A stretch of DNA of 64,000 nt. It comes from Candidatus Troglogloeales bacterium (GTDB lineage Bacteria > Nitrospirota > Nitrospiria > SBBL01 > SBBA01). The DNA is taken from NCBI GenBank assembly GCA_005239925.1, contig SBBA01000183.1, forward strand, positions 27 to 64,026, in the 5' to 3' direction. The position numbers were made by a program, and so were the translations under genes. Numbering within the stretch: the first letter of the stretch is position 1; the number at the start of each line of letters is the position of its first letter. The notes under the pieces were generated by a model. That model made no database searches, was not told the origin of the DNA, and worked only from the letters and a program-made list of their open reading frames with translations. Positions 2,705 through 46,970 of the stretch are shown piece by piece.

Positions 2705-2880
2705 GGGACCTCTAAAAACCTAGTGCGCGGCCCGACTGCTGCGTTACCCAGGCGTGACGATGCCTGCGAGCCTGACGACGCCTGCGGCGCTCGGAATCCT
2801 CATGTACACTGCGACCATTGCGGTTCCTGTGCGTAGTAGCCCTTGCACTTGAGCAGGTCGGCACGACAGCGCATTTTCGG
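2705..2880 (+). mobile_element. Family A MITE-like element, degenerate copy A1
   Basis: The left end 'GGGACCTCTAAAAACC' and the core align with the 160-bp subtype at 38271. An internal duplication of the 'gcgtgacga.gcctgcg' segment is present. The right TIR has decayed. Confidence 0.65.
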
Positions 2881-4393: not shown

Positions 4394-4703
4394 CGTTTGT
4401 TCTCCAGAAATATCTAAAGGGTAACTCTAAAAACCATCATAATTGGTAGGAACACCAAGGATGGGTTAAGCGGATAGTACACACGTTGGACGATATATTG
4501 CAAAGAATCTGTTTTAAGAGAGTGTTTACTGATGGATAGATTTGTCTGCAGATGATACCCGAATTGCCTTGAAAGTCCTTGCTTTCTATTAGACCAAAGA
4601 GTCTCATCTACCTTTAAGTAAACACTCTCTTGTTTTGATCCATCTCCGCCCGTTGCAATCAATCTGTTGAATACATACAATGGAATAGGAAGTACATAGG
4701 AGA

Positions 4704-5002: not shown

Positions 5003-5245
5003 ATGATGAATTCGATCAACTTGAAAGAAGCACGCAAGCATCTGGGTGACTTGGTCGCCGAGGTAGAGCGTGGCGCGTCAGTGGCCATCACCCGTCGCGG
5101 CAGGAAAGTAGCGCGTCTGGTACCAATGGAAAAAGAATCCCCTCAGTCTCTACCCGATCTGGCTTTGTTCAGGGCCTCAATCAAAGTAAAGGGAGGAAGC
5201 CTGACCGACGCGCTTTTGTCCATGCGCCATGAAGAACGGTTCTGA
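5003..5245 (+). CDS. vapB: Phd/YefM-type antitoxin (VapB-like)
   Basis: 80-aa ORF. The N-terminus 'INLKEARKHLGDLVAEVERGASVAITRRGRKVARLVP' matches the Phd/YefM pattern. It lies upstream of a PIN toxin. Confidence 0.8.
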   Translation: MMNSINLKEARKHLGDLVAEVERGASVAITRRGRKVARLVPMEKESPQSLPDLALFRASIKVKGGSLTDALLSMRHEERF

Positions 5246-5334
5246 TCCGCCGACGGGCGGAGGCGAACGGAGCCCTCCCGTTGGTCGGTCTGGGCCTACC
5301 GATGCCGTTACACGAAAGTTATCTACGCAAAAAA
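5246..5334 (+). repeat. Family D post-stop-codon element, copy D2, lying between vapB and vapC
   Basis: Starts at the base after TGA 5243-5245. It opens with the hairpin CCGCC-gacg-GGCGG and ends in 'ttatctacgcaaaaaa'. Confidence 0.65.
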
Positions 5335-5358: not shown

Positions 5359-5781
5359 ATGTCCTTTCTTGACACCAGTGTTCTTACCCCTTACTACTGC
5401 CCGGAGAAACGAAGCACACGCGTACAGCGCCTGTTATCACGCATCGACCGCCCCGTCATTAGCCCACTTGTTGAAATTGAGTTTTATTGCGTGATGGCGC
5501 GCAAAGTTCGATCGGGCGAGATCAGCAAATCCACGGCCCAGCGCATCTTTACAGAGTTCAAACACCACGTAGCGGAGGGACGGTTTGATGTTGTCCCCAT
5601 TGAGGCGGGTGAATATACGTTTGCACGACGATGTATCGAAGAAATGTCCACCTCACTCCGCGCGGTAGACGCTCTTCATTTGGCCACTGCGTCGGCACAT
5701 AACATCGTTCTTGTCACGGCGGATCGCGACCTCGCCCAAGCGGCCAAGCGTTTTGGTGTCAAATATAAGTTTATCCCCTGA
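5359..5781 (+). CDS. vapC: PIN-domain ribonuclease toxin VapC
   Basis: 140-aa ORF. It has the N-terminal 'FLDTSVL' acidic motif and later 'DALHLATA' and 'VTADRDL', the typical PIN acidic residues. Confidence 0.85.
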   Translation: MSFLDTSVLTPYYCPEKRSTRVQRLLSRIDRPVISPLVEIEFYCVMARKVRSGEISKSTAQRIFTEFKHHVAEGRFDVVPIEAGEYTFARRCIEEMSTSLRAVDALHLATASAHNIVLVTADRDLAQAAKRFGVKYKFIP

Positions 5782-14649: not shown

Positions 14650-14886
14650 AAGTTTTTTCAACAAGTCTTCTACATCTTCCGAATCTTCCGAAAAGTCAAA
14701 AACGGATATTCAATTGTTTCAGCTTACCAAAAAGGATAACGCAAGCTTGAAAAGTAGTGCACAAATAGGCACCCTTAATTGCTGGATTGTACAGGAGCAA
14801 TAAAAAGGCTTCTTTCTTATAGGGATCTAGGCTTATGTCGGACAAACCGAGAGACTACCTTGAAAATAAGACTGGAAAGAGCATAA

Positions 14887-15028
14887 GGGCACCTCTAAAA
14901 ACCTACTGCGCGACCCAATTGCTGTGTTGCGCGGTGCTCGAAATCCTCATGTATACTGCATAGATTGCGGTTTCTCCGCTCCGTGCGCCTTGCACTTGGG
15001 CCGCTCGCGACGGTTTTTAGAGATGCCC
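14887..15028 (+). mobile_element. Family A MITE-like element, copy A2 (142-bp subtype)
   Basis: TIRs are GGGCACCTCTAAAAACC and GGTTTTTAGAGATGCCC. Flanking direct repeat is ATAA/ATAA. No ORF is present. Confidence 0.8.
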
Positions 15029-15082
15029 ATAAGAAAGCGAACAGCACTTTATGTCCAGGATCTTAATTGGCGCATACATCCT

Positions 15083-18000
15083 TTATGGAATGCTAGTAGA
15101 TATTTCGCATAAAACCCCAGTATCTGTACCACTGCCACCTGAACATAGATCAATATGTAATCCGCCATTTAATACGTCATTTCCTGATCCACCAAGCAAT
15201 CTATCGTCTCCAGCGTCTCCATTCAGAGTATCGTTGCCGTTCTGACCATGCAGGTCGTCTTTTCCATCTCCTCCGGATAAGAGGTCGTTCCCACTTCGAC
15301 CATAGAGCTTATCATCGCCCACACCACCATCTATAACATCGTCTCCCTCCTGACCATGGAGGGCGTCTCTTCCATTCCCACCTGACAAGACGTCATTTCC
15401 ATACTTACCATAAAGTCGGTCGTTCCCGGCGCCACCCTCCATGATATCATCTCCCTCATTACCATGTAGTATGTCGTCTCCACCTTCACCTTTTAGAATA
15501 TCATTCCCATAGCCGCCATAAATCTTATCTTTACCTAAACCACCTACCAGGCAATCACTTCCACCACGCCCCCTGATATCATCATTACCCCCTAAGCCCC
15601 GAATCAGGTCGTTCCCGGATGTGCCACCTAGGGTATCATTAAACGCCGTACCAACAATCACGTTATCAATCCGCAGCACGCCACATTCTAGCGCAAACAA
15701 CAGAAATTCTCCAGAACCAATAGAAAGACTCACTCCCCCTGACTCCACAATAACAGTTCCACCGGATACCAAAGACGAAATGGTTTCATCCTGGTGTATG
15801 GTTAATGCTAACACAGCGCCAGGTCCCAGCGTTGTGGTATAGGCCTTGCCATTAATATCAACGCCTATCACTGCCCCAGTTGGCCCGGCAAGGGAGAAGG
15901 CAAGATCGCCTTCCAGTGGAGTAACCGCCGTCATAGAGGCGCCGGTATCCAACGCAACCGCCGTTGTGATCCCACCCGAAGTTAGCGTGATATTGACCGG
16001 CCCTGCAATACTGGATATAACCGCTGACCCACAGGACACTGAAGTCATTATTGAATTCACTAATGACGCCGGAAAAACAAGTTCAGCCGGAGGGATACAG
16101 GCCAATGTAACCGTGGCCGGAGAGAGGCCCGACTCAACGGTGATCGTTATCCTGCCACCTACCCACTCCAGTTTAATAATCCGACCGGCCCGATTCGTAA
16201 GGGTTCCCATCGTTAGCCCATCCGAGAAGTCATTAGAGAAAGTGATTGGCTCTAAGTCTATGTCATCAACAATCCCATCGTTATCGTCATCCGGGTCAAT
16301 ACAATCGGCCATCTCGTCCCCGTCGGTGTTGGTAAATCCTTCATCCACGCCCTCGTTCAGGTCATTGTCAACGCCATCACAAATCTCCGGCGTGGAAAGG
16401 GGATTCAACGGATTAGACCCTGCGGCCAACTCGATGTCGTCGGAGAACGTGTCGCCATCGTCATCCGGGTCAACACAATTGGCCATCGTATCGCCATCGG
16501 TGTCGGTAAATCCTTCATCCACGCCCTCGTTCAGGTCATTGTCAATTCCATCGCAAGACTCCGGCGTGGAGGCAGCATTGAGCGGATCAGCTCCCTCGGC
16601 AATCTCCACAGCGTCGAGGAACCCGTCACCATCATCATCGTCATCACAAATATCGCCTGAACTATCTCCATCAGTATTAGTTTGATTCGTGTTGGCTGTT
16701 ATGAGGCAGTTGTCGGTTGAGTCGGGAATGCCATCTTGATCGGTGTCGATAATAATATCAAAAAGCGTCTGCTGGCATGTCTGCAAGAGTGTAATCTCCA
16801 TAGTTGGATCGCATACGGCCTTATTTCCGGTCCAGACAACATAGGCATTCCCGTTAAGAACGGCCACGCCATTATAATCACCAATACGAAGCAGGCCATT
16901 TCCTTTTTCAGGGGCGCCCAAGTCCGGATCAAAGGGGGCATGGGCATCATTCACCTGCACCTCGGGAAGAAAGGTCAAGCCACCATCTACACTGCTTCTT
17001 GAAAACAAATCCAACAAGAAGTGATCATTGCTATTCACAGCCCCACGCCTGGTATCATACCAGGTTACCGTTAAGAATCCTGATCGGGGATCAATACCGG
17101 CGGCAGGAAAAAACTGAATCGTTTCATCGGGGCTAGTGTCCACCCGTAGCGGGGCATCCCAGTGCTGCCCAAAATCGGTGGAACGGGCAATATAAACATT
17201 CATATCATCAAAATCAGGACCGTGACTTATATCGGTTGGATCATCCGCAGCAACCACGTAAATATTGCCCGGGCGGGCCGCGTCGGGCAACACCCATGCC
17301 TGAGCGGAGGGCTGCGTCCATGTGATCGTCTTATTCAGACGCCTGTCACTGAAGTTGAAAGTAATATCCGCATTGCCTGCCGTAAAAGCGGTTGTCGGCG
17401 GGAGATAATTGTTACCTCCATCCGTTGACCGTCGAACCATCACCTGACCAGTTTCTCCATCAGGATTACCGCCGTTAAACCTGGGCTGATTATGGTAGGC
17501 GACATAAACGTCACCGTTGGACGCCACGGCGTTATGTGCCGGCCAATTAAATTCCAAGTCATCCTCAGACAGAATCAGCCCAGCAGACCAGTTCAACCCC
17601 TGATCATCAGAGAAGGAGGTGATGACAACGGTCCTGGGGCCACTAAATTTTGTCCAAACAACATAGAGGCGGTCTCTATATGGACTCGTAGAAAAGCTAT
17701 CGGCGGCAAGCCAATCTTTATCGTTAATCGCTCCATCGTCGGCCGCAAATCCAGCGCCAGACGTCACATTCACCGGATAGCCGGGAAGGATCTCCCCCGT
17801 CATCGGATTGATCTGCGAAATAAAGATATCTCTTCTGTTCGTGTTACCTGATCTCTTTGCCAAGTACGTCCAAAACAAACGCCCCTGGCTGTCATAGGCC
17901 AGAGACGTATCGCCTCCAATAACATGAGGGTCATAATCACTCGACAGAGCCGGAGGCACAATGGCCCTTGTTGGGGCGCTAAACGTGGCCCCCCCGTCGG

Positions 18001-18211
18001 CTGAAACACGTACTTCAGCTGATGGGGAGACGGCAATACGATTTGGATTATTCGGATCAATAGCAATCGCGGGTTGACTCAGCCCGCCTAATGGGAGGTC
18101 AACGGACTGGGCAACCGCAGTACCAATAAGCGTAGGGAGCACCTGTAGCGTCGCAGCAAAAAGAGCCCCAACACAAAACGCAACTCTTTTTGAAAAAGAG
18201 ACCTTTTTCAT
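15083..18211 (-). CDS. Secreted multidomain protein: BNR/sialidase-like propeller, thrombospondin type-3-like Ca-binding repeats and a C-terminal RTX nonapeptide block
   Basis: 1042-aa ORF with an N-terminal signal ending '...GTAVAQS'. Asp-box motifs are 'SADGGATF', 'SDDQGLNW', 'STDGGNNY', 'STDFGQHW' and 'SVDGGLTF'. 'DTDQDGIPDSTDNC' and 'DGDxxxDxxDxDDD' repeats are present. There are more than 12 'GGxGxDxL' RTX repeats near the C-terminus. Confidence 0.85.
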   Translation of the reverse strand: MKKVSFSKRVAFCVGALFAATLQVLPTLIGTAVAQSVDLPLGGLSQPAIAIDPNNPNRIAVSPSAEVRVSADGGATFSAPTRAIVPPALSSDYDPHVIGGDTSLAYDSQGRLFWTYLAKRSGNTNRRDIFISQINPMTGEILPGYPVNVTSGAGFAADDGAINDKDWLAADSFSTSPYRDRLYVVWTKFSGPRTVVITSFSDDQGLNWSAGLILSEDDLEFNWPAHNAVASNGDVYVAYHNQPRFNGGNPDGETGQVMVRRSTDGGNNYLPPTTAFTAGNADITFNFSDRRLNKTITWTQPSAQAWVLPDAARPGNIYVVAADDPTDISHGPDFDDMNVYIARSTDFGQHWDAPLRVDTSPDETIQFFPAAGIDPRSGFLTVTWYDTRRGAVNSNDHFLLDLFSRSSVDGGLTFLPEVQVNDAHAPFDPDLGAPEKGNGLLRIGDYNGVAVLNGNAYVVWTGNKAVCDPTMEITLLQTCQQTLFDIIIDTDQDGIPDSTDNCLITANTNQTNTDGDSSGDICDDDDDGDGFLDAVEIAEGADPLNAASTPESCDGIDNDLNEGVDEGFTDTDGDTMANCVDPDDDGDTFSDDIELAAGSNPLNPLSTPEICDGVDNDLNEGVDEGFTNTDGDEMADCIDPDDDNDGIVDDIDLEPITFSNDFSDGLTMGTLTNRAGRIIKLEWVGGRITITVESGLSPATVTLACIPPAELVFPASLVNSIMTSVSCGSAVISSIAGPVNITLTSGGITTAVALDTGASMTAVTPLEGDLAFSLAGPTGAVIGVDINGKAYTTTLGPGAVLALTIHQDETISSLVSGGTVIVESGGVSLSIGSGEFLLFALECGVLRIDNVIVGTAFNDTLGGTSGNDLIRGLGGNDDIRGRGGSDCLVGGLGKDKIYGGYGNDILKGEGGDDILHGNEGDDIMEGGAGNDRLYGKYGNDVLSGGNGRDALHGQEGDDVIDGGVGDDKLYGRSGNDLLSGGDGKDDLHGQNGNDTLNGDAGDDRLLGGSGNDVLNGGLHIDLCSGGSGTDTGVLCEISTSIP
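16262..16612 (-). repeat. Tandem 174-bp (58-codon) duplication inside the RTX/TSP3 gene
   Basis: An identical 41-mer 'ggtaaatccttcatccacgccctcgttcaggtcattgtcaa' occurs at 16331-16371 and 16505-16545. At protein level the units are 'STPESCDGIDNDLNEGVDEGFTDTDGD' and 'STPEICDGVDNDLNEGVDEGFTNTDGD'. Confidence 0.8.
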
Positions 18212-18308: not shown

Positions 18309-18450
18309 GGGCACCTCTAAAAACCTACTGCGCGACCCAATTGCTGCGTTGCGCGGTGCTCGGAATCCTCATGTACACTGCGTACATTCCGGTTCCTCTG
18401 CTTCGTGCACCTTGCACTTGGGCCGCTCGCGACGGTTTTTAGAGGTACCC
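18309..18450 (+). mobile_element. Family A MITE-like element, copy A3 (142-bp subtype)
   Basis: TIRs are GGGCACCTCTAAAAACC and GGTTTTTAGAGGTACCC. Flanking direct repeat is AGTT/AGTT. It differs from A2 by about a dozen mismatches on manual alignment. Confidence 0.8.
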
Positions 18451-26625: not shown

Positions 26626-26743
26626 AAGGAGAGTATATCATGTTTTAAAACCAATGCCGAAGATAGCAGCGTTATATATCTCCACACAAATAGCGCCACA
26701 TTATTTGTAAAAACATGAATTGCCTGTTATTCTCGAGTGCTTT

Positions 26744-26786
26744 GTCCTTGCATTTGAGCCACTTGCTACGGTTTTTAGAGGTGCCC
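26744..26786 (+). mobile_element. Family A MITE-like element, right-end fragment (A6)
   Basis: 'ccttgcatttgagccacttgctacGGTTTTTAGAGGTGCCC' matches the right third of copy A4. No left end is present. Confidence 0.6.
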
Positions 26787-26892
26787 TTTTCTATTGATGT
26801 CACCATTTCCAAAGATCAAGAAAGAAATTTTCCAGTTGTGTGAGGGAGAGTCAATAGCAGTATGGGGCACGAGGTATAACCCAAGGCAAAGA

Positions 26893-29825: not shown

Positions 29826-29984
29826 TTCCTTTGGCCTTTTTCCCCGATTAGGGTTTTGTCCTGGAGAAGGAGTATACCTACTTTAAGTTCCTTATTCCAA
29901 GGGGGGCTGTTAAAATATAACGACACGGAATAACGGGATATATGGGAGTACAAACTCAACCTCTCGAAAGAGGAGGTCACCCGG

Positions 29985-30536
29985 ATGTTTCTTCATCTCT
30001 GGGAACTCCAGGAAATCCATATCTCCTATTATTACTTTGATGAAAACGAAATGCGGCTGAACGATTTTACCCTGATTGACGTCATGTCGATTTCCCCCAG
30101 GGATCGACTGTTTAAGCCCCTTTCCTTTAAGATGCAAACCGGTCTAATCAGAAAAGGAGATCCGTTTGGCAAAGACCATCTCATTTATCAATTCGACCCC
30201 GGTGTTGGATTGGCCTTTCAAAATGAAATGATCGGCCTTTATTATGGGATGCTTATAGCCGACCTGGAAATCGGCGGGATGTTTGACGATCATTATGCGA
30301 TGGGGGTAGGGGCCGAGATCGGCGCTACTATCCGGATCACCGATTTATGGAAGGTCATTCCTTCGGCCAAGGCAATGCGTTATGAGATAGGAGACCGTTT
30401 CACAGAAGGCCAGGGGAAGATCACGCAAACATTCACGGTGGACCAGAATAATACGCTGGGCATCACCGCATCACGTGAGTTACGATGGGGTCAGAAGAAA
30501 ACGAAACTGGGTCTCACCTGGCATTATTACTTTTAG
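29985..30536 (+). CDS. Hypothetical protein, possibly a C-terminal remnant of a larger exported or beta-barrel protein
   Basis: 183-aa ORF with the RBS AGGAGG 8 nt upstream. It has no signal peptide. It ends '...LGLTWHYYF', an aromatic C-terminus like an OMP beta-signal. An in-frame stop lies at 29931 upstream. Confidence 0.45.
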   Translation: MFLHLWELQEIHISYYYFDENEMRLNDFTLIDVMSISPRDRLFKPLSFKMQTGLIRKGDPFGKDHLIYQFDPGVGLAFQNEMIGLYYGMLIADLEIGGMFDDHYAMGVGAEIGATIRITDLWKVIPSAKAMRYEIGDRFTEGQGKITQTFTVDQNNTLGITASRELRWGQKKTKLGLTWHYYF

Positions 30537-30640
30537 GGCGCTTCTAAAAACCCCCTAAATCCCCCTTATCAGGGGGACTTGATCATTCCCCCCTGATAAG
30601 GGGGCGGGGGGGTTAAGTCTTTCAGTTTTTAGAGGTGCCC
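30536..30640 (+). mobile_element. Family B MITE-like element, copy B1 (A-type TIRs, different core)
   Basis: Termini are GGGCGCTTCTAAAAACC and AGTTTTTAGAGGTGCCC. The core holds the hairpins 'TCCCCCttatcaGGGGGA' and 'TCCCCCCtgataaGGGGG'. Its first G completes the TAG stop of the upstream ORF. Confidence 0.75.
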
Positions 30641-30668
30641 TCACCCTTATAGAGGATTTAACTTACCC

Positions 30669-31451
30669 ATGATCTCTTTGATCACTGCAGACACACTCCG
30701 AACCCTGGCGGGACTGACCGGATTCTTCCTGTTTGCGGCCATCGAAAATATTTTTCCGTTTGCAAAAAGGATTGACCCGATCCTCCGACATTATCGGATC
30801 AATCTCTCCCTCATGATATGTAATGCCGCTCTTTTAAGCCTTCTGGTTGGAGGAATAACGGCCACCTATGCCCAATTTTTATCAGCCCACCGCATTGGGC
30901 TGCTGCATCAGTTTGATATCGGATGGCCAATGAAGGTATTCTTGACCCTTGTTTTTTTGGATGGGGTCACCTACTTCGTCCATATGGCGTACCACCGTGT
31001 GCCGCTGCTATGGCGTTTTCATCGGGTGCACCATACCGATCGCGACCTGGATGTGACCTCCGCATCCCGTTTTCATCCGGGAGAGATCATTCTATCCTTT
31101 GGAATACGATTGGCCGCCGTGACGCTCTGGGGCCCGCCGTGGGAGGCTGTTGTTATTTTTGAAGGCACCCTCTTTTTCTTTGCGCAATGGGGCCACAGCA
31201 ATTTTACAATCCCCAAGCAGATCGAGCCAACCGTTCGATTGCTTTTTGTGACCCCCGATATGCATCGTCTGCATCATTCGGATTATCGTGCTGAAACTGA
31301 TTCGAACTATTCCACCGTATTGTCCTGCTGGGATCGGATTTTCAGGACCTATACAAAGGCGCCGCAAAGAGCACTTGTGTTAGGATTGGCTGAGTATCCT
31401 GACACAACCCAACTAACCTTTTTACGCTTACTGATTCTTCCTTTTAGATAG
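30669..31451 (+). CDS. Fatty acid hydroxylase / sterol desaturase superfamily membrane protein
   Basis: 260-aa ORF with His boxes 'HMAYH', 'HRVHH' and 'HRLHH' and several TM segments. Confidence 0.8.
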   Translation: MISLITADTLRTLAGLTGFFLFAAIENIFPFAKRIDPILRHYRINLSLMICNAALLSLLVGGITATYAQFLSAHRIGLLHQFDIGWPMKVFLTLVFLDGVTYFVHMAYHRVPLLWRFHRVHHTDRDLDVTSASRFHPGEIILSFGIRLAAVTLWGPPWEAVVIFEGTLFFFAQWGHSNFTIPKQIEPTVRLLFVTPDMHRLHHSDYRAETDSNYSTVLSCWDRIFRTYTKAPQRALVLGLAEYPDTTQLTFLRLLILPFR

Positions 31452-31573
31452 AAAAGTACAGAAATAGGAATTATGGAAAATTGTAAAATTGGATCAATAT
31501 CCCCCCTTTACAAAAGTATCTGATATAATAATAGACTTGGGAAGGGGGGCGAGCGTATTGGGAAATTCAGCGA

Positions 31574-31876
31574 ATGCAACCGTCACAAATCGAAAAGATC
31601 AGAGAGAGGGTTAGGCAAAAACAGTATGACATAACCGCCTGTGCGATGGAAGAGATGTCAGAAAACAATTTAGACATTACCGACATCGAAAATGCCATGC
31701 TTCATGGTCGTATCCTCTGCACTGAAAAAGACAATCCAAATGGAAATAAAGATGAAATCGAAGGGGTATGCCTTGATGAGAAAACGCCGATTGGGGTCGT
31801 GGGCCGCATGACCGAGACGGGCCGGTATCTCATCATGGGTATCTATAAATCATTACAGCGTGAGGAGGAAGCCTAA
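31574..31876 (+). CDS. DUF4258-like putative toxin
   Basis: 100-aa ORF. Its length and pattern ('...ITDIENAMLHGRILCTEKD...GVVGRMTETGRYLIMGIY') fit DUF4258. The stop overlaps the downstream start (TAATG). Confidence 0.55.
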   Translation: MQPSQIEKIRERVRQKQYDITACAMEEMSENNLDITDIENAMLHGRILCTEKDNPNGNKDEIEGVCLDEKTPIGVVGRMTETGRYLIMGIYKSLQREEEA

Positions 31877-32112
31877 TGTATGACTATCGTTGTGAGTATT
31901 GTGAAGGAACGGTTATGCCCTGTCTTGTTGAACGAGAAACATTCAAGCATGAGAACGGTTTTGTTATACTTGAGGACATTGAAATTGGCATTTGTGATCA
32001 GTGTGGAAGTCGGTATTATAGCGCGGATATTCTTCATACAGTCCATGAAATTGCGACGGAAAGAAATTATCCTGAAAGGATGGAGGCCATTCCAGTTGCA
32101 CGTTTAATGTAA
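31876..32112 (+). CDS. YgiT/MqsA-type zinc-finger antitoxin-like protein
   Basis: 78-aa ORF with 'CEYCEG...ICDQCGSRYYS', the YgiT-type CxxC...CxxC arrangement. Confidence 0.65.
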   Translation: MYDYRCEYCEGTVMPCLVERETFKHENGFVILEDIEIGICDQCGSRYYSADILHTVHEIATERNYPERMEAIPVARLM

Positions 32113-32229
32113 GACTGGAATCCCACAGATACCTTCTTTACACCCCTCCTTGGATAAGGGGTGTGGAGGTTCGTCTCTGTCCTGAAAACAACGAAAGCAG
32201 TTGCACTTTATTGGCTATAAGGTGTTATA

Positions 32230-32338
32230 GGGCGCCTCTAAAAATCTAAAGACGCAACCTCCTTCCCCCTTTTATTAGGGGGAAATGCGGTAAAAGTCCC
32301 CCTGATAAGGGAGATTGAGAGGGTTTTTAGAGGCGCCC
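32230..32338 (-). mobile_element. Family B MITE-like element, copy B2 (inverted relative to B1)
   Basis: Termini are GGGCGCCTCTAAAAATC and GGTTTTTAGAGGCGCCC. Flanking direct repeat is TATA/TATA. The core is the reverse complement of the B1 core. Confidence 0.75.
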
Positions 32339-32389
32339 TATACTATTTTCTTATATCTTTCTTGCATCCATTATGGGGAGGCGATTACT

Positions 32390-34567
32390 ATGGCAGATAT
32401 GGAACGAAAAGAAAACAGGGTTTTACGGCGTCCCGATCGGATTCACCGATTGGGAGAAATTGCTTATAACCTGTGGTGGAGCTGGCACCCGGATGCCCGA
32501 AGCCTTTTTAGTCAATTAGAGCGTGACCTTTGGAAACGCACGCAACATAATCCCATAGAGATTTTACGGGATATCTCCCAGGAGCGGCTTGAAGAGGCCG
32601 CCCACGACCCGGCCTTTCTCGATCATTATGATCGTGTCCTGACGGCCTATGACGCCGAACATGGCAAACGATCCACCTGGTTTAACCAGAACTTTCCCGA
32701 TCATGCCAACAAGACGATTGCCTATTTCTCAGCGGAGTTCGGCATCCACAATTCCCTGCCGATTTATTCCGGCGGCCTGGGCCTTCTGGCAGGGGATCAC
32801 TGTAAAGAAGCGGGCGAGTTAGGGCTGCCCCTTGTGGGCGTCGGCTTTTTATATCAGCACGGCTATTTTCACCAATATATCCATTCCGACGGCTGGCAGG
32901 AGGCCGCGTCTAAACCCTTATCCATGGACTCGGTGGCGCTTCGGTCGGCCGGTTCGCCGGACAGAGTCCTCATTGAAGTCCCCGTCGGTGTGAATAACAC
33001 CGTGTATGCGGCGATCTGGAGGGTTCAGGTCGGGTCGGTTCCCCTGTATCTCATGGACACGGATATCCCGGAAAACCCGCCCTGGAATAGGGAGTTATCA
33101 GCCAAACTTTATCCCGGCGACCAGGAGTTCCGAATTCGTCAACAGATTGTTCTAGGGATTGGCGCGGTTCGCACCCTGCGGGCTATGGGAATTCACCCGT
33201 CCGTATGGCATTTGAACGAAGGCCATACCGCCTTCATCATGCTGGAACGGATTCGCGAAGGGGTGGCTTCCGGATTGCCTTACGAAGAGGCCGCATATCG
33301 GGTTCGGAAAAGCACGGTCTTTACCACCCATACCCCTGTTGCCGCCGGTCATGATATCTATCCGTCCTCGTTGATTGAAAAATATTTTTCTAATTTCTGG
33401 CCGTCCATGGGGGTGGATCAGGCCGGGTTCTGGGCCATGGGATGTCATCAGGGGCCGTGGGGAGACGCCTTTAATATGACTGCCTTGGCCCTGCGTTTAT
33501 CAGACGGGCACAATGCGGTAAGTCGTTTAAATGGCAAAATCTCACGCAAGATGTGGCATCACACCCTATGGCCCCAGTGTGAGGAAGAGCAGGTGCCGAT
33601 TACTTCGATTACCAATGGCGTTCATGTTCCCACCTGGGTGGCCCAGGAGATCAAGCATTTGTACGAGGAATATCTGTCCCCCGATTGGGTAAGTCGTCAC
33701 GACGATCCCCTCCTTTGGAAAAAGGTGTTTGATATCGGAGACGCCCTTTTCTGGGACACGCATCTCCATCTCAAAAGAAAACTGTTGCGATTTATTCATG
33801 ATCGTGCCCGCTCCTTATGGACCGATCGGCGAGTTGACCCCAGCCAGATACTGTCTTCCGGCGCCTTGCTGGAAGCCGAGACGTTTACCATCGGGTATGC
33901 ACGCCGGTTTACCGCCTATAAACGTCCGACGCTTCTTTTTCATGATCTGGATCGCTTAAAACGGATTCTGACCAATCGGTGGCATCCGGCGCAGATTGTC
34001 TTTGCGGGCAAGGCCCACCCGGCCGATGATGTCGGAAAACGGGCGATTCAACAGATTTACAATTTGGCCCGCGATCCCCAATTGGCCGGTCGAATCGCCT
34101 TTGTGGAAAATTATGATATGCGATTGGCCCATGACCTGGTGCAGGGGGTAGACCTATGGCTGAATACCCCGCGTCCTCCCAACGAGGCCTGCGGCACCAG
34201 CGGCATGAAGGCCGCTATCAACGGCGTACCCACGTTAAGCGCCTTGGACGGTTGGTGGATTGAAGGATACAACGGGAAAAACGGCTGGGCCTTTGGGAGA
34301 AACGGTGCGGCGAGCGAATCCGGCATGTCACATGAGGAGCAGGACAAAGAGGACGCCAATGGCATCTACGAACTGTTGGAGAAGGAGATCATCCCCTTGT
34401 ATTACGAACGAGACTTAAAGGGGGTTCCCCATAAATGGGTGCAGGTCGCCAAGGAAACGATCTCTTCAGTAGGGGCGGCCTTTTCCGCTCGAAGGATGAT
34501 GAAGGAATACACGGAAAAACTGTATATCCCTGCTGCACGACGCGCCGACCATGAAAGTTGTTCATGA
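32390..34567 (+). CDS. glgP: Alpha-glucan (glycogen/maltodextrin) phosphorylase, GT35 short bacterial/archaeal type
   Basis: ATG 32390 has the RBS GGGGAGG. The ORF-track start at 32315 lies inside repeat B2. The PLP-lysine region 'EACGTSGMKAAINGV' is present, and the N-terminus 'LGEIAYNLWWSWHP' is typical. Confidence 0.9.
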   Translation: MADMERKENRVLRRPDRIHRLGEIAYNLWWSWHPDARSLFSQLERDLWKRTQHNPIEILRDISQERLEEAAHDPAFLDHYDRVLTAYDAEHGKRSTWFNQNFPDHANKTIAYFSAEFGIHNSLPIYSGGLGLLAGDHCKEAGELGLPLVGVGFLYQHGYFHQYIHSDGWQEAASKPLSMDSVALRSAGSPDRVLIEVPVGVNNTVYAAIWRVQVGSVPLYLMDTDIPENPPWNRELSAKLYPGDQEFRIRQQIVLGIGAVRTLRAMGIHPSVWHLNEGHTAFIMLERIREGVASGLPYEEAAYRVRKSTVFTTHTPVAAGHDIYPSSLIEKYFSNFWPSMGVDQAGFWAMGCHQGPWGDAFNMTALALRLSDGHNAVSRLNGKISRKMWHHTLWPQCEEEQVPITSITNGVHVPTWVAQEIKHLYEEYLSPDWVSRHDDPLLWKKVFDIGDALFWDTHLHLKRKLLRFIHDRARSLWTDRRVDPSQILSSGALLEAETFTIGYARRFTAYKRPTLLFHDLDRLKRILTNRWHPAQIVFAGKAHPADDVGKRAIQQIYNLARDPQLAGRIAFVENYDMRLAHDLVQGVDLWLNTPRPPNEACGTSGMKAAINGVPTLSALDGWWIEGYNGKNGWAFGRNGAASESGMSHEEQDKEDANGIYELLEKEIIPLYYERDLKGVPHKWVQVAKETISSVGAAFSARRMMKEYTEKLYIPAARRADHESCS

Positions 34568-35106
34568 AAGTCGTTGAAGAACCGCTGCTTCGTAAAAAAG
34601 TTGTTTACCAGGGAAGATATGTACGAACGGAAGAGCAGACCGTAAGGCTTCCGGATGGAACCGAGGCCATGCGGGAGATTGTTTGCCCCCCGGATGCGGT
34701 GGGTATTCTGGCCATCGATAAAAATGAGATGGTTTATTTGGTGCGGCAGTATCGTCCCGCGATCCATCAAATTACGTTGGAGATTCCGGCCGGGATCATT
34801 GATCCAGGGGAGACGGAAGAAGCAACGGCACGGCGTGAATGCCGGGAAGAGATCGGGTTGGTACCAGGGAGACTGATGTTCCTCTTCTCTTATTTTCATT
34901 CAGTCGGATTTTCCACCGGCAAGATTGCTGTTTTCCTGGCGACTGATCTTACGCCTTCAGACGGCCCTCATCCCGACTCCGAGGAGTTCTTAGAACAGGT
35001 TGCTCTCCCTTTTAATGAGTTGTATCAAAAGGCGACTTCCGGAGAAATCGTCGACAGCAAAACGTTGCTGGCCGCGCTTTGGTATCAACAGAAGAGACGT
35101 GCATGA
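34564..35106 (+). CDS. NUDIX hydrolase (ADP-ribose pyrophosphatase-like)
   Basis: It has the Nudix box '[22 protein letters not shown]'. ATG 34564 overlaps the glgP stop as ATGA. Confidence 0.85.
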
Positions 35107-35762
35107 ATCCAGATTCCTCTCCTCCTTTACGTCCCATATTAAAGACACCCCACGGCGAGAAAAAGCTCCTGCTGCACTCCTGCTGCGCCCCTTGTGGCGG
35201 GGAGGTCATGGAGGCGCTCATCGCGTCCGACATTGCGTTTACGATCTATTTTTACAATCCGAACATTCATCCCCATGCCGAGTATCTGTTGCGAAAGGAT
35301 GAGAATATCCGGTTTGCCAATCAACATGGGATTCCCTTTATTGATGCCGATTACGACAAGGAAAACTGGTTTGACCGGGTGAAAGGGTTGGAGATGGAGC
35401 CGGAACGTGGGGAGCGATGTACCGTTTGTTTCGATATGCGGTTCGAGCGATCGGCATTGTACGCCCATGAAAACGGCTTTCATCTTTTTACAAGCACGCT
35501 GGGTATCTCCCGATGGAAGGACATGGATCAGATTAATCGCGCTGGGGTTCGGGCGGCCAGCCGGTATCCGGAGATGACCTATTGGACGTTTAACTGGCGA
35601 AAGGGCGGGGGAAGCGCCCGGATGATTGAAATTTCAAAGCGTGAGCATTTCTACCAGCAGGAGTATTGTGGCTGTGTTTACAGTTTGCGCGATACCAATC
35701 AGTGGCGATTAAAGAATGGCCGCTCGCCCGTCCAACGCGGCGAGAAATTCTATGGCGATTAA
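35103..35762 (+). CDS. queH: Epoxyqueuosine reductase QueH (DUF208)
   Basis: '[15 protein letters not shown]' and 'YCGCVYS' are the conserved Cys motifs. The ATG overlaps the nudix stop as ATGA. Confidence 0.85.
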
Positions 35763-35768
35763 TGGGTC

Positions 35769-36179
35769 TTATGGAATAGCCTGAATCTGCTGACGCATCT
35801 TTTTGGCCTGGAAGGAGGCCCCACGGGCTGCTTCATAGGCTGCATGGGCATCACCCGCCTTACCGAGTTGAATCGCCTTATTTATCCTTTCGAGCGTTAA
35901 TTTCAGAGAGTCAAGGGTCTCTTTCTTTGCCTTGATCTGGGGCATATTGCTGGATTGAACCTCCAAGATCAACGCCTTGATCTGTTCGACCGCCTTTTCC
36001 CCATAGAGGACAATCTCGTGGGTATGCCCCTCCCCACCGTGGTGAACCATCTCCTGGGACAGTCGGTAGATTTCGTTTGAACGTTTTCGTGTAGACTGGA
36101 TCGGGTCTTCTTTTGCGGTGATATCACCCGATGAGAGAAGGAACGCCAATAGCAACACGAAGGGAATAATCTTTTGCAT
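35769..36179 (-). CDS. Small periplasmic His-containing protein (SmbP-like, tentative)
   Basis: 136-aa ORF with a signal peptide 'IIPFVLLLAFLLSSGDITA'. It is helical and contains 'HHGGEGHTHE' and 'GDAHAA'. Confidence 0.5.
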   Translation of the reverse strand: MQKIIPFVLLLAFLLSSGDITAKEDPIQSTRKRSNEIYRLSQEMVHHGGEGHTHEIVLYGEKAVEQIKALILEVQSSNMPQIKAKKETLDSLKLTLERINKAIQLGKAGDAHAAYEAARGASFQAKKMRQQIQAIP

Positions 36180-36254
36180 TTTTTTTCTTGTTTCGGAGAA
36201 AAAAGTATCATAGACTTGGCAAAATCGTCAACATAGAAAGACCGCCGACACATA

Positions 36255-38147
36255 ATGTTATTTCATACAGAGATTTCATTTACGCCTCCTTTTGTGACAT
36301 TTCCCTATACGAACACCCGATTTTTAAGTCAGGTATTTTCCCACTCGACAAATATTTTTTTCATCTTTTCTCTAATGCTGGTTCTCACGGCTGGCGTTGC
36401 GGATGCGCGGGGTCGTTGGGATGTCTTGCAGGGGGAAGTGAGCTCCAACGCCCTCTGGGGAACGCATTTTATCTCGGCTAAGGAAGGTTGGGCGGTGGGA
36501 ACCCAGGGAACGATTCTTCATACCGTGGATGGCGGCGCCCATTGGCGCGCCCAGCACCGCGCTTCCGATGAACGTTTTTTTGCCATTGATTTTGCAGATG
36601 CCAATCATGGCTGGGCCGTCTCGTGGACAGGCCGGATTTTCAATACCATCAACCGGGGTGAACACTGGGCGGAACAGGCCCGGCCGATCCACACCTGGTT
36701 ATGGGATGTTGATTTCCACGATGCCCGATACGGCTGGGTCGTGGGAAATAACGGTGTCATTATTAATACGATGGATGGCGGTAAAACCTGGCGACAGCAG
36801 AAAAGCGGCATTTCGTCGGCCCCCTTGCTGGGGGTTTCCTTCATTGATGCATATCGGGGCTGGATTGTGGGTTGGAACGGGGTGATTTTGCATACCCAGG
36901 ATGGCGGTAAAAAATGGGTTCATCAAAAGAGTGGAACCAAGACGCCGCTAGAGGCCGTTTTTTTTATTGACGCTAAAAACGGGTGGGCCGTAGGACGCAA
37001 GGGGACTATTCTGCATACCGTAGACGGTGGCCGACACTGGCGGCATCAGAAGAGTCCTGTAGAAAACCTTCTTTTGGGGGTCCAGTTTATCTCGCCCAAA
37101 CTGGGTTTTACTGCAGGGGGGTCGGGTACCTTCCTAGTGACGAAGGATGGTGGGGAAACCTGGGAGAAGCGGGCCGTTTCTTCGGATAGTACCATAGAAG
37201 GTTTTTCTTTCTCGGATGCGCGCCATGGTTGGGCCGTCGGTTGGGGCGGCGTGGTGCTTCACACCCAGGACGGTGGTGAACATTGGGAGACGCAAAACTA
37301 CGGCTTTTCAGACCGATTTTTCCGTATTCATTTTGCGGATACACGTTATGGTTGGATAGCCGGTGCAGATGGAACCCTTTTACATTCATCCAATGGGGGG
37401 GAGAGTTGGACAACACAAGAAACAGGAACCCAGGAGTGGGTCCTTTCGGTTTTTTTTGTGTCAGAAAGTACAGGGTGGGCTGTTGGTGAAAAGGGATTGA
37501 TGCTTCATACCACCGATCGGGGCCAAAATTGGAAGCCGCAGACCAGACTGGTTGAGGCAGGCCTCGAAGGAGTTTTTTTCTTAAATGAGAAGATCGGTTG
37601 GGTAGTGGGCGAGAAGGGAATTATTTTTAAAACGGTGGACGGGGGAAAGCGATGGCGGCTTCAAATTAGCCCGGTCTTTACCTTGTTAACCGATGTGTTC
37701 TTTGTGGATCAAAAAAAGGGATGGATTACGGGAGACGCCGGAACCCTTCTCTACACGGAGGATGGAGGGGAGCAGTGGCGTCCTGTACCTATAAAAACCC
37801 AGGCATTGTTAAGCCGAATTATCTTTCCAGAGGCCAGGAGGGCCATTACCGATGTCGGTTATATTGTGGGGATGCATGGAACTGTTCTAACGACATCAGA
37901 CAGTGGGCTTCATTGGCATTCCGTGAATGTCGGACTATCGGTCGGGTTATGGGATATTTTTAAGAAAGGGAGCGAAATTTGGGTTGTAGGTGATCTGGGC
38001 GTTATTTTGTACAGCCCGGATCAAGGCCGGCATTGGGAGACAATCGAAAGCGGCGTTGTTCAACGTCTTACAGGCGTCTTTTTTACTGAGCCAAACCGTG
38101 GCTGGATTATTGGCAAGGGTGGGCTTATTCTTAAGTTTAGTCCCTGA
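36255..38147 (+). CDS. Ycf48/BNR-like beta-propeller repeat protein
   Basis: 630-aa ORF. It has more than 12 repeats of 'GWAVG..G.ILHT.DGG..W..Q'. The hydrophobic leader is 'IFFIFSLMLVLTAGVADA'. The exact start is uncertain. Confidence 0.75.
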   Translation: MLFHTEISFTPPFVTFPYTNTRFLSQVFSHSTNIFFIFSLMLVLTAGVADARGRWDVLQGEVSSNALWGTHFISAKEGWAVGTQGTILHTVDGGAHWRAQHRASDERFFAIDFADANHGWAVSWTGRIFNTINRGEHWAEQARPIHTWLWDVDFHDARYGWVVGNNGVIINTMDGGKTWRQQKSGISSAPLLGVSFIDAYRGWIVGWNGVILHTQDGGKKWVHQKSGTKTPLEAVFFIDAKNGWAVGRKGTILHTVDGGRHWRHQKSPVENLLLGVQFISPKLGFTAGGSGTFLVTKDGGETWEKRAVSSDSTIEGFSFSDARHGWAVGWGGVVLHTQDGGEHWETQNYGFSDRFFRIHFADTRYGWIAGADGTLLHSSNGGESWTTQETGTQEWVLSVFFVSESTGWAVGEKGLMLHTTDRGQNWKPQTRLVEAGLEGVFFLNEKIGWVVGEKGIIFKTVDGGKRWRLQISPVFTLLTDVFFVDQKKGWITGDAGTLLYTEDGGEQWRPVPIKTQALLSRIIFPEARRAITDVGYIVGMHGTVLTTSDSGLHWHSVNVGLSVGLWDIFKKGSEIWVVGDLGVILYSPDQGRHWETIESGVVQRLTGVFFTEPNRGWIIGKGGLILKFSP

Positions 38148-38270
38148 AGATCTGCCTGTCACATCCTGAAGAATATCAAGTCAATGGGGGCTCTCGTTTT
38201 TCTTCGTAGCCTCACTCGATCCTTTCCAACAAGGCTGATAATGACTCTTCATCGGAGCGGAAGTATATCC

Positions 38271-38430
38271 GGGCACCTCTAAAAACCTACTGCGCGGCCT
38301 AACTACTGTGTTGCGCGGGCGTGACGACGCCTGCGGCGCTCGAAATCCTCATGTACACTGCGACCATTACGATTCTTGTGCGTAGTAGCCCTTGCATTTG
38401 AGCCGCTGGCTACGGTTTTTAGAGGTGCCC
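38271..38430 (+). mobile_element. Family A MITE-like element, copy A4 (160-bp subtype)
   Basis: It has perfect TIRs GGGCACCTCTAAAAACC and GGTTTTTAGAGGTGCCC. Flanks are ATCC/ATTC. Confidence 0.8.
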
Positions 38431-38803
38431 ATTCCTTAAATAAACATAAACTGTTTATTAGGTAAATAAAATAAATACAATTAGAGTATTGACAAAGTAG
38501 AGTTTTTTTGCTATCGTTCCAAGCATCGTAAAACTGATGCGCTTTATGTCTGTAAACTTGTTGGATTAATTGGCTGTGGCTAATGTTTACTATAATCAGG
38601 GTACCTCTTTTAGGTGGGGTGGTTTGTTCGATATCGTTGACTGGGCGTTGAAAAACGATGAGCCGGTGATTGTGATGGGGCGACAGTCACAGAAGGCCCC
38701 CTCAGGCACTAACAAGAGAAGAAGGTTTGACGCCAAGTGGGATAACCGGTTCCAGGAAAACCTGAAGCTGGATTAGTTAGAAGGTTGTTTAAGTCAGAAC
38801 GGA

Positions 38804-38844
38804 AGAAGGAGGGTATAGGGTTATATTGGGGTGGTCCTCCTTCT
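38804..38844 (+). promoter_or_regulatory. Hairpin sequestering an SD-like AAGGAGG just upstream of the 38863 gene
   Basis: AGAAGGAGG (38804-38812) pairs with CCTCCTTCT (38836-38844), giving a 9-bp perfect stem and a 23-nt loop. Confidence 0.35.
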
Positions 38845-38862
38845 CTGGTGTGAAGGTTATGG

Positions 38863-40620
38863 GTGGGAGAAGTAGGGGTGAGGCTGATTCTTTTTTCGGT
38901 TTTGTTAACGCTAGCCCTCTGGGTAGGCTATGTTAGGTGGGATAATACTTCTGGTGTAGTTGTAGGGAAAAAGGGTGGGTTTGTGGAAAGCAGTGATGAG
39001 ATGGCAAAAGTAATGATCCCGGCTATGGCGATTTCAGATAAAATAGTAGTCACGGTAGAGGGGATTTCCGATGTGCCCCCTGAGACGGTTGGAAATGCCT
39101 ATGAATTTAGCCCTGATGGAACCCGTTTTGCTCGTCCTGCAACCATCACGATTGCGTATGACGAAACAGCGCTTCCTGATGAGGTAGATGAGGCTGATCT
39201 TACGTTAGGGTATATGGTGGGTGGTCGTTGGAAAGCGGTTACCGATGCAACCGTGGATACGGTTGCTAATACCGTTACTGGCCGTTCCGTTCATTTTAGC
39301 CGTTTTGGTGTGTTTCGGGCTGGCTCGCGTACGGTAGGCATCGAGGGTGGGGTCGTTGAAAGTGAGGATGGAAAGGCTAACATTGTTGTTCAGTCCGATG
39401 CCGTTTTGGCCGATACTGCTTTTACCATAGATCCTATTTCTGATACTCCAGAGGGGACTATTGGGTTGGCTTACCGACTCGGACCTGAGGGGTCTCATCT
39501 GGCCCGGCCTGCTGTCCTTTCGGTTGTCTATGACCCGTCTGTCATTCCGTTGGGGGTTGACGAGGCCGATCTGGCCTTAGGAACCTTAGTGGATAATCAA
39601 TGGCAGGTTCTGACAGGGAGTGTAGTAAATGTCATTACAAATACTGTGCGTGGAAGCGTTGTACGGTGGGCCCCTTTTAATGCCTACAGTGTTCTGGCCC
39701 GCCCGTTGCCAACCATTGAAAATCCCTCCTTTGAGTCGGGCGTTTCTGCTGTAAAAAACTTGGTTCCAGGACGGAGTTATACCATTACCGGTTTATTGAA
39801 AGGGGTGGGTCGTTGTTGTACGGGTGATATTACTTCATTTGGCGTGGCCGTGGATGGGCGAATTATTTTTGAGCGGAGTCGGCCGCTCAAGGATCAATTT
39901 GTCCCGTTCACGACCACGTTTCCTGCAACTTCTAGTAATCACACCGTATCGTTTTTTGCTGAGCGAAAGAGTTTGGATGTTGGCTATGCCGTTGATGATA
40001 TTGCCATTGCTCCACAGAGAGGCTTTAATCTGATGATAAAAGGTCTTTCCACAGGAAGGGGTGTTGTTACATCAAATCCTCCCGGGATTGATTGCAGTCG
40101 GGACTGCTCCGCCTCATTTGCTTCGGGAACGAGCGTCACTCTAGTTGCAAAAGCAGAACGAGGATTTGTTTTTTCGGGTTGGACAGGAGAGGAATGCACA
40201 GGAATGTGGGTCTGTACGCTGACGATGGACTCCGCTAAGGCAGTCAAGGCGGTTTTTTCTCATCCGTCGTCCAATGCAGCGCTGTCTAGCCTTATGACGG
40301 TCTCTCCAAAAAGTTATGGGGAGGGGCGGCTTGAGCCAGACTTTAGTCCCGAGCTAAAGGAATATACAATTTCAAGACTTGAACCTGGCTTTATTGGCTT
40401 TATGGCCTCTGCAGAGAGCCCTGATGCTGCAGTTGTTGTTGGGGGAAGTGAGGTAGCTTCTGGTCAGTGGTCACGCGTTTATTTTGATGGAACAGATGTC
40501 ACCATTCCTGTTGTTGTAACCGCCCAGGATGGAAAGACAATGAGGGGGTATACGGTACGGTTATGTCGGTGGTATTGTATAGATTCTAAAGGTAGTTTAG
40601 GTAAAAACCCCCAACTTTAG
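38863..40620 (+). CDS. Secreted or anchored protein with an InlB-B-repeat-like module and a cadherin-like beta-sandwich C-terminal domain
   Basis: 585-aa ORF (GTG 38863 or GTG 38878) with the N-terminal anchor 'LILFSVLLTLALWVG'. Two similar about 140-aa N-terminal repeats ('...ITIAYDETALPDEVDEADLTLGYMVGGRWKAV' and '...LSVVYDPSVIPLGVDEADLALGTLVDNQWQVL') are present. It also contains 'VVTSNPPGIDCSRDCSASF..GTSVTLVAKAERGFVFSGW'. Confidence 0.7.
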   Translation: MGEVGVRLILFSVLLTLALWVGYVRWDNTSGVVVGKKGGFVESSDEMAKVMIPAMAISDKIVVTVEGISDVPPETVGNAYEFSPDGTRFARPATITIAYDETALPDEVDEADLTLGYMVGGRWKAVTDATVDTVANTVTGRSVHFSRFGVFRAGSRTVGIEGGVVESEDGKANIVVQSDAVLADTAFTIDPISDTPEGTIGLAYRLGPEGSHLARPAVLSVVYDPSVIPLGVDEADLALGTLVDNQWQVLTGSVVNVITNTVRGSVVRWAPFNAYSVLARPLPTIENPSFESGVSAVKNLVPGRSYTITGLLKGVGRCCTGDITSFGVAVDGRIIFERSRPLKDQFVPFTTTFPATSSNHTVSFFAERKSLDVGYAVDDIAIAPQRGFNLMIKGLSTGRGVVTSNPPGIDCSRDCSASFASGTSVTLVAKAERGFVFSGWTGEECTGMWVCTLTMDSAKAVKAVFSHPSSNAALSSLMTVSPKSYGEGRLEPDFSPELKEYTISRLEPGFIGFMASAESPDAAVVVGGSEVASGQWSRVYFDGTDVTIPVVVTAQDGKTMRGYTVRLCRWYCIDSKGSLGKNPQL

Positions 40621-40647
40621 TACTAGGGGAGAAAGAGGAGGTTCAAC

Positions 40648-40899
40648 ATGGAATTATTTTTAATTGGAAGTAATGGTGAGTTAGCCGGTATTTCAAAGAG
40701 GAAGAAGACGTTGGTCAAGGGGCCGTCCAGGACAGGTAAGAGCCGGCTCCCTTTTGAAAAATCTAAGTTATCGCCTTCCTCCTTACGTGAAGAAATTCGC
40801 TTAATGCTCTATCTTTCTTCTCGTCTTGTGAATGAGGGTAAGGCATTAAAATCGCAGGATGTGGGTGTGACGAGTTCGCTCTCGTCACAATGCGCCTAA
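40648..40899 (+). CDS. Small basic hypothetical protein
   Basis: 83-aa ORF with a strong RBS GAGGAGG 7 nt upstream. I recognise no similarity. Confidence 0.4.
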   Translation: MELFLIGSNGELAGISKRKKTLVKGPSRTGKSRLPFEKSKLSPSSLREEIRLMLYLSSRLVNEGKALKSQDVGVTSSLSSQCA

Positions 40900-41111
40900 T
40901 CCTCTGCCTCCCTAAGGGCACTCCTTACAAAAGGGGAACGAGCAAGGAGGGTTCTCCTCCCTTAAGCTGGGGGGCTATTTTCCTTGATAAATAGGGAGGC
41001 GGAGTACTTTTAAAAAGGCCTTTTTGAGCTGGTCTGGCCCTGCCGTGTAGATGCGTTTCTTCTTTTTGGGTCCGGGTCACTTTTTTAGCGGTTTCTTGGG
41101 TTTACCATAAA

Positions 41112-41271
41112 GGGCACCTCTAAAAATCGTAGTGAGGGCTCAAATGCAAGGGCTACTATGCACAGGAACCGCAATGGTCGCAGTGTACATGAGGATTCCG
41201 GGCATTGCAGGTCTCGTCACGCCCGCGCCACGCAGCAGTTGCGGCCGCGCAGTAGGTTTTTGGAGACGCCC
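41112..41271 (-). mobile_element. Family A MITE-like element, copy A5 (160-bp subtype, inverted)
   Basis: Termini are GGGCACCTCTAAAAATC and GGTTTTTGGAGACGCCC. The core is the reverse complement of A4. It supplies the last about 17 codons of the small minus-strand ORF 41217..41426. Confidence 0.8.
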
Positions 41272-41548
41272 CTAATATGGGCGGTTTCTGATACGTGATC
41301 CTTACTGTTGCTTGGTGCCTTTCGGATCATTTTTCTGATTTCTTCGGGTGGAATCTTTTTCAAATCGTGGCAACTTATCATGGGCTGTTCCTCCATCCTG
41401 AAAATTTTAAAGGAACCCTCTTCCAATGCCCTTAAGCTTTCTCATGATATCAAGAATGGGATGCCGTCTCCACCTTCTCTATAGTCCTTATTTTCTAACC
41501 CATTTAACTGATATGTCCTACCTATCGGGTAGTCGTTAAAAGGGCTGT

Positions 41549-42822: not shown

Positions 42823-42882
42823 GGGGAACCAACCCATCCCCGCCTGGTACTGTGGTACATTAATTGCGCAACATGTTGGTTC

Positions 42883-42992
42883 ATCATTCCGGCATGTCTC
42901 TAGCCGGAATCCAGGGTTACGCCATTGCGGGCAGTGTCGAACGCTTTGACTCCGACAGCTCTGGATTCCGGCTTAAACATTGCCGGAATGAC
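42883..42992 (+). repeat. Family C nested-hairpin element, copy C1 (ribBA-ribH spacer)
   Basis: Outer arms are aTCATTCCGGCA and TGCCGGAATGAC. Inner arms are AGCCGGAATCCAGGG and CTCTGGATTCCGGCT. Length is 110 bp. Confidence 0.75.
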
Positions 42993-43035
42993 AGGGATTT
43001 TGTTAGCCCTGTAGGCAGATGGGTTTTCGTAACGC

Positions 43036-46918: not shown

Positions 46919-46970
46919 AAAAGGAGAAAATGATCTTTGGCCCAAGGCTACGACGTATTAACTTAGATGT

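Follow-up and report, generated by a model that had tools for sequence, protein, structure and literature searches.

A contig of a Candidatus Troglogloeales bacterium carries two sets of short repeats that have unrelated cores and share one 17-bp terminal inverted repeat, and they all reside in a stretch of 64,000 nucleotides (the window; assembly GCA_005239925.1, contig SBBA01000183.1). This locus raises the question of what these repeats are, how unrelated sequences came to be bounded by the same end, and what kind of enzyme might have moved them. An initial annotation, which listed eight copies in two families (A and B), regarded them as MITEs mobilised in trans; we followed this proposal through the anatomy of the copies, their occurrence in other genomes, the sites into which they are inserted, and their folding.

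A search of both strands of the window with the 17-mer GGGCACCTCTAAAAACC, allowing up to three mismatches, yielded 15 matches, as against the 0.27 expected from dinucleotide-preserving shuffles, none of which (0 of 100) reached this number. The ends bound six complete elements (A1 to A4, B1 and B2), to which an element with a decayed right end (A5) and a fragment (A6) have to be added. Together with a lone end, the copies are as follows:

14887..15028, plus strand: A1, family A, 142 bp, with both 17-bp ends, flanks ATAA/ATAA and a covariance-model score of 127.7 bits.
18309..18450, plus strand: A2, family A, 142 bp, with both ends, flanks AGTT/AGTT and a covariance-model score of 132.5 bits.
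38271..38430, plus strand: A3, family A, 160-bp subtype, enlarged by a single 18-nt hairpin unit, with the imperfect flanks ATCC/ATTC.
41112..41271, minus strand: A4, family A, 160-bp subtype, inverted, with three mismatches in one end and no flanking duplication.
2705..2880, plus strand: A5, family A, with a left end that lacks one base, the 18-nt unit twice in tandem, and the right end lost.
About 26746..26786, plus strand: A6, a family A right-end fragment of about 41 nt, in which the right end is perfect.
30536..30640, plus strand: B1, family B, 105 bp, with a C5/G5 hairpin core and no flanking duplication.
32230..32338, minus strand: B2, family B, 109 bp, inverted, with flanks TATA/TATA.
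4419..4435, plus strand: a lone left-end-like 17-mer, GGGTAACTCTAAAAACC, with two mismatches (about 0.01 expected by chance).

When the region 14800-15120 is read, A1 extends from GGGCACCTCTAAAAACC to GGTTTTTAGAGATGCCC with ATAA on either side. Within the pairs the identity amounts to 92% (A1/A2), 86% (A3/A4) and 80% (B1/B2), and the 160-bp subtype corresponds to the 142-bp subtype plus the 18-nt hairpin unit that A5 possesses in duplicate. The cores of families A and B are unrelated; their global alignment gives 38-39% identity, which is the noise level. All eight copies of the initial annotation, its division into two families with one shared end, and the flanks it had reported thus stand. 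Its statement that the window lacks a transposase was borne out for the IS5 type by tblastn. As it had also claimed, the elements (105-177 bp) contain no internal open reading frame of at least 100 amino acids, but its view that all copies are intergenic needs amending, since the first G of B1 completes the TAG stop codon of the open reading frame at 29985-30536. A covariance-model search of the window returned no further family A copies, and the 17-mer at 4419-4435 has no partner end in the window at up to five mismatches; it is probably a relic, and thus a ninth trace. An inverted repeat (4516-4541/4606-4631) is present near this lone 17-mer.

Where else does this end occur? A scan of species-representative genomes with GGGCRCCTCTAAAAACC returned at least 116 stretches. 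Among the matches listed, the source organisms belong to the Nitrospirota, Campylobacterota, Clostridia, Bacteroidota, Spirochaetota, Alpha-, Beta- and Gammaproteobacteria and others, and many matches are situated at contig ends; because exact-match scans select for this very end, its apparent invariance across phyla is in part an ascertainment effect. Pairing of inverted matches, again among those listed, produced dozens of MITE-sized elements (50-290 bp) and six elements of 1208-1320 bp, each with a single open reading frame of 335-367 amino acids. The proteins encoded by these six IS5-group elements (loci L015, L017, L034, L052, L080 and L086) match the NCBIfam model NF033581 for IS5 family transposases with 259-275 bits against a cutoff of 140 (E values of 1e-77 to 1e-82), as well as Pfam DUF772 and DDE_Tnp_1. 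By tblastn, at least 13 loci, spread over many phyla, have an IS5-type transposase next to the end. The insertion sequence (IS) copies in these other genomes combine one DDE transposase, a length of about 1.2-1.3 kb, ends of roughly 16 bp and a 4-bp duplication (TTTA, TTAA or ATAT), and this is the set of properties by which the IS5 group is recognised; a 4-bp target duplication is typical of this group. A seventh IS5-type element with these ends, 2584 bp in length and flanked by the duplication ATAT, was noticed on the chromosome of Sulfurovum sp. CS9 (L084, 4823-7406), where it contains a nested second transposase-like open reading frame of 420 amino acids. One further inverted pair of 1331 bp (L059) was rejected as an IS, as it holds an unrelated gene.

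An element of known name can be attached to this end. Plasmid pWW0 carries a 1276-bp IS5-family element whose ends, GGGCACCTCGAAAAACC and GGGCACCTCGAATAACG, differ by one mismatch from the 17-bp end, and IS1246 of pWW0 has been tabulated as a member of the IS5 group of the IS5 family with 1275 bp and inverted repeats of 15/16 (PMC3056050). The cognate autonomous elements can therefore be addressed as IS1246-like members of the IS5 group. IS1246 and the six elements named above have the same 17-bp end as the window copies (one mismatch in IS1246, none to three in the others), and in the window and the IS alike the ends start with GGG, as do those of E. coli IS5. They differ in that IS1246 comprises 1275 bp and encodes its own transposase, while the elements in the window are short and gene-less. 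In blastn-short comparisons with nine IS copies, including IS1246 and two decayed copies from a related genome (contigs L171 and L173; see below), the similarity of both families is confined to the terminal 16-19 nt. Since a type II MITE resembles an IS only in its terminal inverted repeats (reviewed in PMC10969869), families A and B are to be classed as type II MITEs. No parental IS with the subterminal sequence of family A or B was found in 49 metagenome loci; this single metagenome scan contained many MITEs and no transposase.

If these elements have transposed, their insertion sites should be marked by target duplications. Window, genome loci and metagenome loci together supplied 97 non-redundant elements with this end on both sides. 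Of these, 46 are immediately flanked by perfect direct repeats of 4 bp, compared with 3.5 expected by permutation of the right flanks (mean of 2000 trials; maximum 11). The signal is restricted to the 4-bp register: across the same 97 elements, shifted registers give 0-2 repeats and other lengths 1-5. The duplicated target is AT-rich with the consensus T-T-A-A, and TTAA is the commonest sequence. Among the complete copies in the window, three of six (A1, A2 and B2) possess a perfect duplication, and A3, A4 and B1 do not.

Going by the best named relatives of its RibBA protein (77-79% identity), the organism is a Manganitrophaceae-like member of the Nitrospirota. Evidence on the history of individual copies comes from a closer relative of 82-87% nucleotide identity (JGI sample 3300045502, contigs L169 to L173). 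A1 and A2 are both absent from the orthologous spacers of L171, in which the site of A1 shows just one ATAA; when A1 and one ATAA are removed from the window, the remaining sequence aligns straight through the GCATAAG of L171. Four other copies reside in a segment that the relative lacks:

29907..41537, unstranded: a variable segment of 11.6 kb that holds B1, B2, A3 and A4; it is missing in L169, where the flanking blocks are 188 bp apart.

In L169, it is the MotA/OmpA block that is found 188 bp from ribBA. The two incomplete copies are located at rearrangements: A5 is positioned at a synteny breakpoint, where the homology to L172 stops at 2695, and A6 lies between blocks that are found on different contigs of the relative (L170 and L169). 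A5 has lost its right end and is therefore immobile. Of the complete copies, A1, A2 and B2 seem to have decayed least, and in the best explanation A3, A4 and B1 are older, with A5 and A6 being truncated remnants at rearrangement breakpoints.

The region beside A6 (window 26656-28110) is itself rearranged with respect to the relative; it contains M23 peptidase remnants (27690-28005 matches L169 6011-6683) and a response-regulator gene that the relative's contigs do not show at this position. L169 has in turn, after a response-regulator gene, a 20-bp solo right end (15497-15525; GGG plus GGTTTTTAGAGGTGCCC, flanks TTTA/TTAA, match 15503-15519) where the window reads an uninterrupted TTTAAAAAAGG. 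This solo end is a near-complete internal deletion or an element footprint.

The empty sites also bear on the idea that pairs of copies act as composite transposons carrying the genes between them. Each of the three pairs brackets one or two genes (an RTX gene between A1 and A2, an InlB-repeat gene between A3 and A4, and genes for a fatty-acid hydroxylase and a DUF4258 protein between B1 and B2), the 11.6-kb segment with two of these pairs is absent from the relative, and the reference list of PMC10969869 points to integrons mobilised by pairs of MITEs. For A1/A2 the idea is refuted, because the relative possesses the RTX gene without either copy, and A1 and A2 each have a duplication of their own. 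Nor do the outer flanks of A3/A4, or those of B1/B2, match each other, and the ends of the 11.6-kb segment do not coincide with element ends. We consider it highly improbable that the pairs have moved in this composite fashion. The RTX gene (15083-18211), whose product is an RTX/TSP3-repeat protein, contains a tandem 174-bp duplication with 78% identity (16254-16601). An exact-protein look-up of the RTX protein and of P0038 gave no match.

The same relative contains remains of the cognate IS. On L171 (732-1298), a 567-bp deletion derivative is bounded by the end and retains a DUF772 remnant, and on L173 the left end GGGCACCTCTAAAAACT (5672-5688) precedes a transposase pseudogene, which continues up to the end of the contig. 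Transposase homologues at 85-94% identity are present as fragments only, and no intact transposase of this lineage was found in the window or in the relative's recovered contigs, which hold pseudogenes and fragments.

Other repeats are present in the window. A second, unrelated family of about 110 bp (42882-42994, 46970-47058, 52035-52147 and, in part, 57086-57122) has the ends TGTCATTCCGGCA...TGCCGGAATGACA, each of which forms a small hairpin. At the orthologous spacers, L169 lacks the copies at 42.9 kb and 52.1 kb and shares the one at 47.0 kb. This family is probably another mobile element. The short contigs of Logan run SRR6943130 break inside A4 and inside this second repeat family. A GC-rich hairpin repeat, CTGATCCGCCGACGGGCGGAGGCGA, occurs at 1889-1913, 5242-5266 and 56941-56965; it looks terminator-like and is found at the ends of the open reading frames at 1893 and 56944. 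Window 5245-5345 matches L169 990-890 at 85%.

How far do the cores themselves extend beyond the window? Once stripped of their ends, the elements from the at least 116 genome loci fall into about 26 unrelated MITE clusters and one IS cluster. Elements of family B came to light in the window alone. Family A is part of a larger family, which comprises 141-bp elements in metagenome-assembled genomes of Nitrospirales, Nitrospinota and Desantisbacteria as well as about 30 copies of 141-145 bp in metagenome contigs. A family A copy that is 95-98% identical to A2 adjoins ribH in Ca. Troglogloeales Bin_34_1 (L074, 1014-1111), in which the ribH product is only 55% identical to the RibH protein of the window, which points to mis-binning or to a horizontal spread of this MITE.

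A property common to all copies is their ability to fold. Every copy forms a whole-length hairpin on either strand (z scores of -5.6 to -8.6). In an oriented alignment of 12 family A relatives, 94.5% of the cells at 43 base pairs can pair and 16 of the 43 pairs exhibit compensatory double changes; the covariation score was reached by none of 500 shuffles, and slid controls are 30-50% paired. A covariance model was built from this alignment, and among 64 distinct matches aligned to it 90% of the cells are paired and 38 of 43 pairs have compensatory changes, values that lean towards the result because this alignment was guided by the structure itself and takes in some matches on the reverse strand. 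Compensatory changes thus preserve the foldback of family A in Nitrospirota, Nitrospinota and Desantisbacteria alike, position 4 of both ends co-varies (C-G, G-C, A-U), and an apical motif (AATCCTCATGTAY..RTACAYTSCGGTT) is nearly invariant. Folding is widespread beyond family A: the cores of 57 MITEs from unrelated families, with their terminal inverted repeats removed, have a median z score of -3.1 relative to shuffles, and 53% of them score below -3. A MAFFT alignment of 26 mixed subfamilies, analysed with RNAalifold, gave the terminal helix only, because indels between the subfamilies misalign the arms; the covariance-model alignment overcame this difficulty.

These data invite an explanation in which the elements are primarily structured RNA or terminator modules selected by the host, in the manner of SPRITE or ERIC sequences, with ends that happen to be IS-like and a spread that was mostly vertical or by recombination. 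The hairpin conserved by compensatory changes and the nearly invariant apical motif both speak for it, as does the location of many copies just downstream of stop codons (50-55 bp for A1 and A2, 9 bp for A5). The same can be said of the layout of the elements, a run of five A followed by a GC-rich stem and a run of five T, which resembles a bidirectional intrinsic terminator. A simple terminator scan does not call these elements, however, and Rfam gave no meaningful match at gathering thresholds over the whole window or at E values of up to 10 for A1, the only hit being sX9 with 18 bits against a threshold of 44 bits. The orientation of the copies relative to genes that read into them (13 against 20) reveals no bias, which argues against a strand-specific RNA role and would allow a role at the DNA level or a bidirectional one. 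The 4-bp duplications, the clean empty sites and the ends identical to those of IS5-family elements point to transposition, and a host function fits as a secondary exaptation and not as the sole explanation. We therefore regard an origin of these elements as host-selected modules as improbable.

A separate proposal, which we put forward tentatively and regard as possible though not likely, gives the core of family A a part beyond that of a passive spacer. Because the foldback with its compensatory changes and the nearly invariant apical motif extend across subfamilies from Nitrospirota, Nitrospinota and Desantisbacteria, this core might constitute a structured module that is conserved for its own sake. 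It could be required for the transposition of very short IS5-type elements, whose two ends it would bring together in single-stranded or cruciform DNA, or it could act for the host as a terminator or insulator that works in either orientation. The IS1246-like end would then define a pan-bacterial MITE superfamily that has repeatedly recruited foldback cores. Beside family B, a promoter-like match (TTGAGA-18-TATACT; 32315-32344, plus strand) is formed by the right end of B2 together with the TATA duplication and faces a glucan phosphorylase gene; it could be a hybrid outward promoter, and it is the one suggestive site that a simple promoter and terminator scan returned.

Several known systems of short repeats invite comparison. 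Prokaryotic type II MITEs (PMC10969869) are alike in their small size, terminal inverted repeats, target duplication, lack of open reading frames, multiple copies, mostly intergenic position and stable predicted structure; what differs here is that one end is common to at least about 25 unrelated cores across many phyla. The Correia elements of Neisseria, the ERIC/YPAL elements of enterobacteria and the RUP/SPRITE elements of pneumococcus are likewise short, palindromic and intergenic, reach a high local density and can form hairpins in transcripts. They have no sequence relationship to the window elements, which yielded no Rfam match, and differ from them in end and target (Correia elements duplicate TA). 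RNA or terminator roles have been proposed for those systems. REP/BIME sequences, which are mobilised by RAYT (Y1) transposases, are similar as short palindromic extragenic repeats. REPs are 20-40 nt long, lack IS-type terminal inverted repeats and make no target duplication. The elements studied here, by contrast, span 105-177 bp and have 17-bp IS-type terminal inverted repeats and 4-bp duplications, so that they do not belong to the REP/BIME class. Anatomy and statistics together rule out readings as REP/RAYT sequences, as integron attC sites or as products of chance. Literature searches, the exact end sequence included, found no description of these families or of this end, and a comparative-genomics paper on the Manganitrophaceae makes no mention of transposases or such repeats. 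The families, and the breadth of cores that share this end, hence appear to be undescribed in the searchable literature, while the kind of element is well known.

Families A and B are thus, very probably, non-autonomous type II MITEs of the IS1246-like subgroup in the IS5 group of the IS5 family. This agrees with the MITE interpretation of the initial annotation, which gains support from the terminal inverted repeats, the 4-bp duplications, the lack of coding capacity, the empty sites and the shared IS ends. The criteria that it had named point the same way: flanking 4-bp duplications recur far beyond expectation in the wide sample of 97 elements, copies differ in presence between related genomes (A1 and A2), and cognate IS with the same ends exist as IS5-family members in at least 13 loci, as IS1246 and as the decayed copies of L171 and L173.

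We envision the following course of events. An IS5-group DDE transposase encoded elsewhere would bind the 17-bp terminal inverted repeats GGGCRCCTCTAAAAACC and would insert the element into AT-rich, TTAA-like 4-bp targets, thereby duplicating 4 bp; both this duplication and the empty sites can be seen directly in the sequences compared here. If recognition is limited to the ends, whatever short sequence has one of them on either side could be mobilised, and this would account for the single end common to A, B and about 25 further unrelated cores from other phyla. The existence of these other cores is consistent with one transposase type serving both A and B, and an IS1246-like transposase would mobilise the two families in trans. 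The whole-length foldback may have been maintained because it is needed for the efficient propagation of short elements, or the host may tolerate it and exploit it as a terminator-like hairpin that acts in both directions.

Understood as MITEs, these elements explain why a Manganitrophaceae-like Nitrospirota genome harbours such a dense network of repeats, with one copy per 8 kb of the window, and why contigs of such genomes end where these copies lie. The elements also bear on the plasticity of the genome: simple insertions account for two copies, an 11.6-kb variable segment holds four, and two are truncated at breakpoints. The 17-bp signature and the covariance model provide annotators with a tool that can be applied across many phyla, and the foldback supported by covariation offers a tractable case in which to ask why bacterial MITEs are so often hairpins.
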